Shown here piece after piece: positions 4,625 to 6,241 of a DNA stretch of 38,925 nt. Made by a program: the position numbers and the translations under genes. Each line of letters begins with the position of its first letter. Positions within the stretch are counted from its first letter, which is position 1. This stretch comes from an uncultured Candidatus Saccharibacteria bacterium (lineage in GTDB: Bacteria > Patescibacteriota > Minisyncoccia > 2-02-FULL-40-12), in the NCBI GenBank assembly GCA_964361105.1, contig CAYHZG010000002.1, forward strand, positions 1 to 38,925. The letters are read 5' to 3'. Below the pieces are notes generated by a model. It was not told the origin of the DNA, did not search any database, and saw only the letters and a program-made list of their open reading frames with translations.

Positions 4625-6241
4625 TTGAAACAGGTTATTCTTCTCATCCTCGATGGTTGGGGCTGGTCCAAAGAAAAAACTGGCAATGCCATCTTAACGG
4701 CCAAAACTCCGGCTCTTGATTATATCAAAAAAAATTACCCGTTTTTTCTGATTCAAGCATCGGGCCGATCAGTTGGCCTGCCTCCCTTAAAAGAAGGTGA
4801 TTCAGAAGTCGGTCACCTGACTATTGGAGCGGGCCGAATTATTATTCAGTACCTAACTATAATTGATCAATCCTTGAAAAACGGCTCTTTTTTTGAAAAT
4901 GAAACATTTATCAAGCTCTTAAACCATGTAAAAAACAACAATGGAGACCCGGCTCCGCAACGGAGACCCGGCTTCGCACGGGTCCCTCTCCAAGCCGGGT
5001 CCCTCTCCAAGACCAAACTTCATCTGATGGGCCTTTTGACTTCTGGAACAGTTCACGCTTCTTTAGAACACCTAATTTCCATAATCAAATATCTAAAACT
5101 AAAAACTGATATAAACGAGGTATTTCTTCATTTGTTCACCGACGGAAAAGATTCCGGGAAAAAAGAATCATTGAAGTTGATTGAAAAAGTAGAAAAAGAG
5201 ATTATCGGTTCCAGGATTAAAATCGCTTCCTTGATTGGCCGCGATTTTGCCATGGATAGAGACAATAACTGGAAACTGACCAAAATGGCTTATGATCTTT
5301 TGGTTTACGGAACCGGAGAAAGGACGACGAACCCAATGGAGACAATTGTCAATTACCACAATCGAGGAATAACTGACGAGCTAATCCCTCCCACCATAGT
5401 CGGTCAGATTGATTCAGTTATTGGGGATAACGATGGAATTTTATTTTTTAATTTCAGGGAAGACAGCGCCAAACAACTAACTAAGGCCCTGGCCAATACG
5501 GAGTTCAATGATTTTGAAACAAAAAAGTTTAGGAATCTATTTTTTGCGACTATGACTAATTATGGGGCTGACCTAAAAATTAAACCGATTTTTAAAAGAG
5601 AAAAAATCAAAAACACGCTTGGAGAAATCCTCCAAAACAATAATAAAAAGCAGCTTCATATTGCTGAAACAATAAAATACGCCCATGTGACCTATTTTCT
5701 TAATGGGCTAAGAGAAGAGAAATTTGAGGGTGAGACCGATGTTTTAATTCCTTCTAGTAGTGATTACTTAGACAAACCAGAAATGAGAGTTAAAGAAATA
5801 ACCCAGAAAATCCTTGAAGAACTTGATTCAGTCAGTCATGAATTTGTAGTCGCGAACTTTGCCAACCCAGACATACTTAGTCATAGCGGAAATTTAGGGA
5901 TAACTACCAAAGGCATTGAAGTAGTCGATGAAATGATTAGTAGAATATATGAGACTGCCAAAGCTAAAGAAGTGACGATTTTAATTACCAGTGATCACGG
6001 TAATGCTGAAAATATGACTTATATCCAAAGTGGTGAAAAAGAAACTAGGCATAACTCAAATCCAGTTCCGCTTTTCCTGGTCAGTGATAACTTTAAAAAA
6101 GAAAAAATAGAGAAGGAGCAAATTTTAGAAGAAAAGGAGGCAAGGGGCATGCTTCAAGATATTGCCCCAACCATTCTTAACCTTATGGAGATTGAAAAAC
6201 CGCCAGAAATGACCGGAGTAAGTTTAATTCAACTGATATAA
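4625..6241 (+). CDS. gpmI: 2,3-bisphosphoglycerate-independent phosphoglycerate mutase
   Basis: 538 aa with a TTG start; contains 'LLILDGWG', 'LHLMGLLTSGTVHAS' and 'ITSDHGNAE'. It carries a 24-codon GC-rich insertion at 4939-5010. Confidence 0.9.
   Translation: MKQVILLILDGWGWSKEKTGNAILTAKTPALDYIKKNYPFFLIQASGRSVGLPPLKEGDSEVGHLTIGAGRIIIQYLTIIDQSLKNGSFFENETFIKLLNHVKNNNGDPAPQRRPGFARVPLQAGSLSKTKLHLMGLLTSGTVHASLEHLISIIKYLKLKTDINEVFLHLFTDGKDSGKKESLKLIEKVEKEIIGSRIKIASLIGRDFAMDRDNNWKLTKMAYDLLVYGTGERTTNPMETIVNYHNRGITDELIPPTIVGQIDSVIGDNDGILFFNFREDSAKQLTKALANTEFNDFETKKFRNLFFATMTNYGADLKIKPIFKREKIKNTLGEILQNNNKKQLHIAETIKYAHVTYFLNGLREEKFEGETDVLIPSSSDYLDKPEMRVKEITQKILEELDSVSHEFVVANFANPDILSHSGNLGITTKGIEVVDEMISRIYETAKAKEVTILITSDHGNAENMTYIQSGEKETRHNSNPVPLFLVSDNFKKEKIEKEQILEEKEARGMLQDIAPTILNLMEIEKPPEMTGVSLIQLI
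4939..5010 (+). repeat. 72-nt GC-rich palindromic element inserted in-frame in gpmI
   Basis: Its 70-nt core (4941-5010) differs at only 3 positions from 9201-9270. It is built as 2 x GGAGACCCGGCT.CGCA followed by 2 x GGTCCCTCTCCAA. GGAGACCCGGCT pairs with AGCCGGGTCCCTCTCC (12 bp with a 4-nt bulge). Confidence 0.9.

Follow-up and report, generated by a model that had tools for sequence, protein, structure and literature searches.

Here, we report that a short, GC-rich palindromic repeat lies within two unrelated housekeeping genes of an uncultured Candidatus Saccharibacteria bacterium, in a 38,925-nt stretch of contig CAYHZG010000002.1 (the window). Our results support a model, which we hold with a probability of about 70%, in which the repeat is a selfish mobile palindrome that is translated in frame. 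One copy lies at 4939–5010 (+) in the gene for cofactor-independent phosphoglycerate mutase (gpmI; 4625–6241, +; 538 aa) and the other at 9199–9270 (+) in a gene for a PilB/GspE-family secretion ATPase (here pilB; 8718–10205, +; 495 aa). On sequence grounds, both copies are recent insertions, because the closest orthologues of the two genes have clean empty sites. The sequences also define what appears to be a previously undescribed family of palindromes, similar to repetitive extragenic palindromes (REPs) and Rickettsia palindromic elements (RPEs), that is spread in groundwater Patescibacteria (Parcubacteria/Yanofskybacteria and relatives). In this model, each 72-mer would be a copy of a small mobile DNA repeat that forms hairpins, is non-autonomous, and belongs to a REP-like family.

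The two copies form a direct repeat, 4260 nt apart, in which 69 of 72 positions are identical (96%) and the mismatches fall at repeat positions 17, 36, and 59. No other repeat of this kind in the window comes near the pair in strength, the runners-up spanning 36–40 nt at 60–78% identity, and the copies have GC contents of 0.68 and 0.65 compared with 0.39 for the window as a whole. The 12-mer GGAGACCCGGCT has four exact occurrences in the window, all within the two copies; when as many as two mismatches are allowed, it has nine matches against 1.4 expected, a number reached in none of 100 shuffles. Internally, the 72-mer consists of two occurrences of GGAGACCCGGCTnCGCA followed by two of GGGTCCCTCTCCAA, and ViennaRNA predicts, for both strands, a nested hairpin whose outer stem carries a 4-nt bulge. 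Predicted RNA folding energies of the copies are −36.2 and −30.0 kcal/mol (z = −4.5 and −3.4), and those of the single-stranded DNA are −19.3 and −13.9 kcal/mol. An earlier note on this DNA had described near-identical copies in two genes, a two-plus-two internal architecture, and nested stems with a 4-nt bulge, all of which we recovered. It had, however, taken the 72-mer as the unit, whereas comparison with the wider family shows a nested dimer, in which one hairpin unit of ~36 nt sits in the loop of a second such unit. Parsed against the single-unit consensus, the outer unit of copy 1 has its 5′ half at 4943–4959 (+; GGAGACCCGGCTCCGCA) and, from the sequence parse and the fold, its 3′ half at 4996–5010 (+; CGGGTCCCTCTCCAA). 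The inner 36-nt unit (4960–4995, +), made up of AC, a 30-nt core at 4962–4991, and AAGC, occupies the outer unit's loop, with GCA on one side and CGGG on the other. By the same consensus, the inner 36-nt unit of copy 2 occupies 9220–9255 (+), with its core at 9222–9251. A covariance model of the family matches the inner units at 4954–4999 (63.5 bits) and 9214–9259 (62.7 bits).

Protein and DNA comparisons agree that both segments were gained. Alignments to homologues in the PDB split at the insert in each protein: GpmI residues 105 to 130 face residues 107 to 109 of 1ejj, and PilB residues 157 to 185 face residues 281 to 286 of 6olj. The inserted residues (about 106–129 in GpmI and about 158–184 in PilB) are missing in all 21 aligned GpmI relatives, one of them 81% identical, and in all 18 aligned PilB relatives, one of them 89% identical. 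For the DNA comparison, we used the closest orthologues, L042 for gpmI and L047 for pilB, which come from the same aquifer as the window organism and have nucleotide identities of 83% and 88%, respectively, to the host genes. The empty gpmI site in L042 reads AATGACAACG followed directly by CCAAACTT, whereas the filled site in the window reads AACAACAATG, 69 nt of insert, and then CCAAACTT. Together with the protein alignment, this gives a net insertion of 23 codons at 4944–5012 (+), with boundaries that are ambiguous by a few nucleotides owing to shared A-Y-G / CAA bases. In pilB, the empty site of L047 reads GAAAAGACA followed by GATATT, and the filled site reads GAAAAGGCA, 72 nt of insert, and GATATT; here the DNA and protein alignments give a net insertion of 24 codons, ATGGAGACC...CTCCAAAC, at 9201–9272 (+). 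The earlier note had proposed an insertion into unrelated genes, encoding residues without a counterpart in homologues, and had suggested aligning GpmI orthologues; the PDB homologues, the 21 and 18 relatives, and the orthologue DNA all agree with this proposal, and the 23-residue GpmI segment is an insertion both against the 21 relatives and against the L042 DNA. Its figure of 24 codons for each insertion stands for pilB but not for gpmI. Since the copies are 96% identical to each other, while their hosts are only 83% and 88% identical to those of the relatives, at least the second insertion postdates the split of the lineages.

A different explanation for these data would be that the repeat is an artefact, arising from a chimeric contig or from mis-assembly across the repeat, or that it is an ancestral segment that the relatives have lost. 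Short repeats may indeed be collapsed or mis-joined in metagenome assemblies, and an assembly artefact was one of the possible refutations that the earlier note had named. However, the same 538-aa GpmI, with the filled allele, is found on four further contigs from four samples and two wells, with zero mismatches over the gene, and L043 and L045, the two of these contigs that reach pilB, carry both repeat copies in identical form. Both open reading frames (ORFs) are intact and colinear with their homologues on either side of the insert, and the same core occurs on dozens of unrelated contigs from other sites. As for ancestral loss, 0 of about 40 relatives have the segment. We therefore regard this explanation, in either form, as so improbable as to be almost negligible. 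In a separate observation on the same ATPase, five close PilB relatives (P0125, P0126, P0137, P0141, and P0145) are 700–834 aa long compared with about 470–550 aa in the others, which suggests large insertions, possibly inteins, in the PilB proteins of other Patescibacteria.

The family to which the repeat belongs was assembled from two scans. A search of one genome per species for exact matches to the inner hairpin returned three, all in metagenome-assembled genomes of Patescibacteria, two of which are Candidatus Yanofskybacteria. A metagenome search with an exact 20-base core pattern returned 38 loci, 34 of which carry the same element, in groundwater contigs of 33–47% GC; L007, L009, L011, and L030 were rejected as chance pattern matches, being GC-rich DNA with unrelated flanks and partial model matches. 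Combining the genome and metagenome loci with the two inner units of the window gave a family alignment of 31 units, 30 of them distinct in sequence. Single units make up nearly the whole family. Over the 31 units, the consensus consists of CCnAC, then GKAGACCCGGCTnnGCACGGGTCCCTCTCC, then GnGA, and the basic unit of ~36 nt can be described as A-Y, a 30-nt core of the form G-K-AGACCCGGCT-nn-GCACGGGTCCCTCTCC, and a purine-rich tetramer. The core is an imperfect stem-loop with 5 + 7 predicted pairs. Its first bases are GTAG in 10 units, GGAG in 13, CTAG or CGAG in 5, GCAG and ATAG in 1 each, and diverged in 1; every unit in the window starts with GGAG. Nested dimers arose independently at L013 and L019 as well. 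The two window copies, however, share the whole nested arrangement, which implies that the dimer itself was copied. In the window lineage, one unit would have landed in the loop of another, and the nested dimer would then have been copied as a unit into gpmI and pilB, after the split from the closest sampled relative.

Covariation in this alignment bears on whether the hairpin matters. Alignment columns 12–33 are fixed by the search pattern, so that the outer positions alone are informative. Among the 30 distinct units, pair 9/38 is GC in 23, CG in 5, AU in 1, and unpaired in 1, and pair 8/39 is CG in 17 and UA in 3. The observed covariation score was matched by 0 of 500 shuffles, and 93% of cells across the distinct units are paired, a value that drops to 11–53% once the partner columns are slid. 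These results support a model in which the hairpin with its 4-nt bulge is under constraint, although covariation cannot tell a DNA role from an RNA role.

Searches in other directions gave few matches. The core had no match in viral contigs. A protein search with the six joined frames of copy 1 returned 218 word-sharing candidates, none at E ≤ 10, a negative that says little for such short, biased peptides, since the window's own proteins went unscored in this search as well. Rfam at gathering thresholds found four tRNAs in the whole window and nothing else. At E ≤ 1 around the element, the Rfam family CRISPR-DR20 came up as a chance match (16.8 bits compared with a gathering threshold of 42; E = 0.83), and a CRISPR repeat was rejected in any case, as the copies, which lie 4260 nt from each other, occur alone or nested and form no regularly spaced array. 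Full-text literature searches found no description of palindromic elements or MITEs (miniature transposable elements with inverted repeats) of this kind for Patescibacteria or the Candidate Phyla Radiation (CPR).

The positions of family members suggest that the element pays little attention to genes. About 18 of 27 distinct sites lie inside ORFs of at least 200 aa with recognisable housekeeping functions, and the products include RpoB, CysRS (cysS), Fmt, RelA/SpoT, PBP2, SecDF, an HtrA-type protease, a GT2 glycosyltransferase, an ArnT-like membrane protein, a cation exchanger, and a VirD4-like ATPase. In the clear intragenic cases, 11 units are in sense and 6 in antisense orientation, and all three sense frames are used. 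The CysRS and Fmt units map to a gap or linker relative to solved structures. About 7–9 of the 27 sites are intergenic; among them, L017, L018, and L020 lie 40–54 nt 3′ of the end of an ORF, two of these between convergent genes. Because coding density in these genomes is very high, the distribution resembles that of an element that inserts largely irrespective of genes and persists where it is tolerated, and does not resemble gene targeting. Two individual sites may be mentioned separately. At L015 (7666–7695), a unit lies within the gene for the RNA polymerase beta subunit, near residue 110, where it is read as HVDPASHGSLSAK; rpoB is a standard phylogenetic marker, and unit inserts there can disturb alignments. 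In orthologous PBP2 genes of two related organisms, a unit is present at the same site (L024, 1236–1265; L041, 611–640), and the unit and its immediate flanks are identical, whereas over the adjoining 45 nt to either side about 20% of positions differ. This comparison hints that an insertion can outlast speciation with its sequence kept, although ascertainment by the exact-match scan accounts for part of this.

In the window, the two copies are read in different frames, as NGDPAPQRRPGFARVPLQAGSLSK in gpmI and AMETRLRNGDPATHGSLSKPGPSP in pilB. The earlier note had envisaged a single encoded peptide, but the frames differ between the copies and so, therefore, do the peptides. The predicted junction peptides of the inserts are VPLQAGSLSK, TKLHLMGLLTSGTVHASLEHLISIIK with an upstream extension, and NGDPATHGSLSKPGPSPNDIEVR. 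No stop codon interrupts copy 1 in any of the six frames, or copy 2 in the three sense frames, and all intragenic family members are open in the frames of their hosts. Units that start with GTAG or CTAG carry TAG in one sense frame, and none of them occurs in an ORF in that frame, which is occupied by GGAG, CGAG, and diverged units only, all without TAG. Such avoidance of TAG in the host frame is expected under translation, but not under splicing or bypass.

This pattern is relevant to an alternative model in which the hairpin does not reach the protein, owing either to its excision from the mRNA as a mini-intron or to ribosomal bypass, so that the mature proteins lack the extra residues. Bypass has precedents in T4 gene 60 and in the GC-rich 'byp' inserts of yeast mitochondria, and CPR bacteria are known for unusual insertions in their rRNA genes, a habit that would fit such a mechanism, as would a very stable GC-rich hairpin (−30 to −36 kcal/mol) in an AT-rich message. 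Apart from the absence of TAG-bearing units from the in-frame-TAG sense frame, however, the net lengths of 69 and 72 nt are both multiples of three, there are no matched take-off and landing codons, no stop codon is present at the 5′ edge of the insert or in frame, and the element has no Rfam family match beyond the chance CRISPR-DR hit. Programmed translational bypass of the T4 gene 60 type was rejected for the lack of an in-frame stop and of a matched codon pair at the edges, and we consider excision or bypass of any kind very unlikely. If the inserts are instead translated, as we propose, three properties of the element would let an insertion survive in a gene: a length that is a multiple of three (72 nt, or 69 nt after a 3-nt target overlap), a GC-rich sequence without stops in the frames used, and a stretch rich in Gly, Pro, Ser, Arg, Thr, and Ala in any frame. 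These six residues make up 66% of the inserts, compared with 31.5% of the host proteins.

Structural models point in the same direction. AlphaFold2 models built from deep alignments have a mean predicted local distance difference test score (pLDDT) of 90.8 for GpmI and 87.2 for PilB. The GpmI insert is modelled as coil with a pLDDT of about 50–58 between the helix at residues 93–104 and the strand at 132–138, and the PilB insert as low-confidence coil, with a pLDDT of about 44–52, between the strands at 150–156 and 187–196. From the low model confidence and the position, we infer that both inserts are probably surface loops; where the earlier note had suggested looking for a surface loop, what the models display directly is low-confidence coil between secondary-structure elements in both proteins. 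The inserts would be read through as disordered loops between these elements, with the enzymes left intact.

An element tolerated in this way could nonetheless be kept because it serves the host, either as an RNA hairpin that acts in mRNA stability, pausing or termination, or co-translational folding, or as a source of new interaction loops. The intergenic members L017, L018, and L020, 40–54 nt past ORF ends, have a placement typical of REPs with RNA roles (PMC3733652). In addition, the core, including its loop, is strongly conserved on contigs with unrelated flanks, and the PBP2 sites of L024 and L041 share an identical element between flanks that are ~20% different. On the other hand, core conservation is partly forced by the exact 20-base search pattern, the closest orthologues work without inserts, the models show low-confidence coil, and the element, found in either orientation and every frame, yields unrelated peptides in proteins that are themselves unrelated. 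A host function is thus unlikely to explain the repeat, and we infer that the element is selfish and not useful.

The part of the selfish-element model that we put forward most weakly is its mechanism, namely that a single-stranded hairpin is handled in trans by an HUH/tyrosine enzyme of the type of the REP-associated tyrosine transposases (RAYTs) or of IS200/IS605. The element would move as a single-stranded hairpin, with the enzyme supplied from elsewhere. Several features are consistent with such handling: the conserved CCnAC 5′ of the element, the GTAG start in about a third of units, the unpaired GTA in the predicted DNA fold of one GTAG variant, and the recurrent insertion into loops of other hairpins. 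A consistent target-site duplication was sought at the two window sites and at the nested insertions and was not found, with boundaries at the nested insertions ambiguous by 0–2 nt. A fixed duplication was rejected, for although both window copies are flanked by CAA, comparison with the empty pilB site gives a clean gain of 72 nt without a duplication. We also set aside a replication-strand bias, which the presence of dnaA and dnaN in the window might have revealed, as there are two sites only and the GC skew has no clear origin signal.

A number of observations weigh against the model of a selfish mobile palindrome translated in frame. The difference between 69 nt in gpmI and 72 nt in pilB needs an ad hoc 3-nt overlap or deletion; most simply, the A-T-G start of the element would overlap by 3 nt with an A-C-G of the host. 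The GGAG of the window units pairs with the 3′ arm instead of forming the unpaired canonical GTAG tag. Pfam searches of 29 ORFs in the window found no transposase, recombinase, or HUH enzyme, and tblastn searches of ~340 kb of genome fragments with approximate queries for the IS200 TnpA and the E. coli RAYT, a weak test, found none below E = 0.1. Copy density is modest: there are two sites in the 38.9-kb window, contigs of 184 and 280 kb have three and two exact-core matches, and the covariance model of the 31 units, run on the window and on 295 kb of related loci, brought up no additional diverged copies. The stop-free reading is mostly a by-product of GC-richness, as composition-matched shuffles lack stops in all three sense frames in 19–23% of cases and in all six frames in about 3%. 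Finally, the argument that the inserts are translated is one from reading frame and stop-codon logic.

With these points in mind, a REP/RAYT-type mechanism is a possibility that we hold only tentatively. Somewhat more doubtful still is a broader proposal, in which a phylum-wide, self-nesting hairpin element of the Patescibacteria is moved without a RAYT or IS200-type enzyme, is shaped for readability in every frame, and regularly supplies surface loops to essential proteins and possibly shared mRNA hairpins. Candidates for its movement would be template switching targeted to hairpin loops or an unrecognised nuclease.

On our best reading, the closest known kind of element is the GTAG-tagged REP, although in behaviour the repeat matches the RPEs. 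Intragenic copies of GTAG-tagged REPs are known in several phyla, and over half of these are dimers or groups that code for 20–30 residues (Di Nocera et al. 2013, PMC3733652). Insertion of REPs within other palindromes is documented, and single-strand handling by RAYTs has been proposed for them (PMC3733652). The element described here resembles REPs in being a short (20–40-nt), GC-rich, imperfect stem-loop; in starting, in about a third of family units, with GTAG, a possible counterpart of the REP tag that is largely unpaired in the predicted fold of a GTAG variant; in occurring as single and composite units, some of them just 3′ of ORFs; and in having some intragenic members, dimers that add 20–30 residues, and insertions inside other palindromes. 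It differs in several respects. The GGAG of the window copies is outside the described degenerate tags (GYAG, GYRG, GTRG, GTMG, and GTGG), and it pairs and covaries with the 3′ arm. The dimers here are nested, in the same orientation, and spread as a unit, whereas REP pairs stand side by side, head to head or tail to tail. About two-thirds of the sites are intragenic here, whereas REPs are predominantly extragenic. There is no RAYT gene in the window by Pfam or in the fragments searched with approximate tblastn queries, and the Patescibacteria are not among the phyla reported for REPs.

The earlier note had instead drawn a parallel with the RPEs. To the extent that the cited accounts describe them, RPE-1 to RPE-10 (Ogata et al.) are about 100–150 bp long and encode a family-specific conserved peptide, and a CGTC tag marks RPE-4 and RPE-6, the short repeats of Rickettsia (PMC10969869, PMC3733652). 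The parallel holds insofar as GC-rich palindromes sit in frame in unrelated housekeeping genes of a small, AT-rich genome, as indicated by the empty sites, the split PDB alignments, and the modelled loops, and are probably read through, as is thought of RPEs, as surface loops. It does not extend to membership in an RPE family as those accounts define one. The element here is a 36-nt unit or 72-nt dimer, is inserted in any frame and either orientation with differing peptides, and is without CGTC or GACG; about a third of its sites are intergenic, and its host lineage belongs to another, unrelated phylum and is free-living or episymbiotic in groundwater. On the grounds of size, frame-dependent peptides, and the missing CGTC tag, a described RPE family was rejected.

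Other known elements are less similar. Like the 'peel-and-paste' IS200/IS605 insertion sequences (ISs), the element has a sub-terminal hairpin, no consistent target duplication, a short 5′ sequence (CCnAC), and insertion into exposed single-stranded loops of other hairpins. Unlike them, it has no TnpA or TnpB that we found and no distinct left and right ends, and it is far smaller than any IS, so the resemblance is one of anatomy only. A MITE was rejected by the usual criteria of terminal inverted repeats of 15–30 bp, a target duplication, and a length of at least 70–300 bp, compared with a 36-nt unit and no consistent duplication here. The mobile GC clusters of yeast mitochondria are likewise short, GC-rich palindromes scattered in an AT-rich, compact genome, occasionally in coding sequence; they differ in residing in eukaryotic organelles, in sequence, and presumably in mechanism, and nothing links them to the repeat.

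One implication of our study is that CPR genomes, which are very small, gene-dense, and usually called poor in mobile DNA, may yet be colonised by selfish repeats. With little intergenic space, such repeats would end up in proteins, among them those encoded by rpoB and by aminoacyl-tRNA synthetase, glycolysis, secretion, and cell-wall genes. The family may thus offer a second natural system, independent of Rickettsia, in which to study the tolerance of palindromic insertions and the seeding of protein loops. In practical terms, repeats of this kind can break short-read assemblies, distort marker-gene alignments and phylogenies, and confuse gene callers.

The window also contains a second, unrelated palindromic repeat of 80 nt, at 18286–18365 (−) and 23343–23422 (+), whose copies are 99% identical. 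It has terminal inverted repeats, ATCCCGTTAGAAAT and ATTTCTAATGGGAT, and an inner perfect hairpin, CCGACTCGCC-nnn-GGCGAGTCGG, and is predicted to adopt a three-way fold (−39.3 kcal/mol; z about −7.3 to −7.8). No copies were found in the related loci searched. At both sites, a cell-wall ORF begins at the first ATG of the repeat; one belongs to a FemAB-family gene and the other to a Polysacc_synt/MurJ-like flippase. The Pfam matches of these ORFs begin at residues 31–35, and a second in-frame ATG lies at the 3′ end of the repeat, so that the repeat could be either 24–27 extra N-terminal codons or a shared 5′ leader. The inverted copies bracket a 4977-nt segment with dnaN, dnaA, rnpA, yidC, and a Jag/R3H gene, the presumed origin region, and recombination between them would invert this segment. 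Cumulative GC skew has no turning point at 18286–23422.

Two further features of the window may be noted. A stand-alone, 95-aa GIY-YIG nuclease-domain protein is encoded at 1447–1734 (+), the only nuclease-like small protein in the Pfam scans, and adjoining its gene are four tRNA genes at 2153–2519 (−), for Lys-CTT, Arg-TCT, Gly-TCC, and Pro-TGG; we found no link between these genes and the palindromic element. At 25619–31573 (−), a gene cluster similar to those for conjugation or type IV secretion includes a VirB4/TraG-type ATPase (26223–28025), a PrgI-family protein (28657–28950), and several large ORFs without a Pfam match, one of them 704 aa long.

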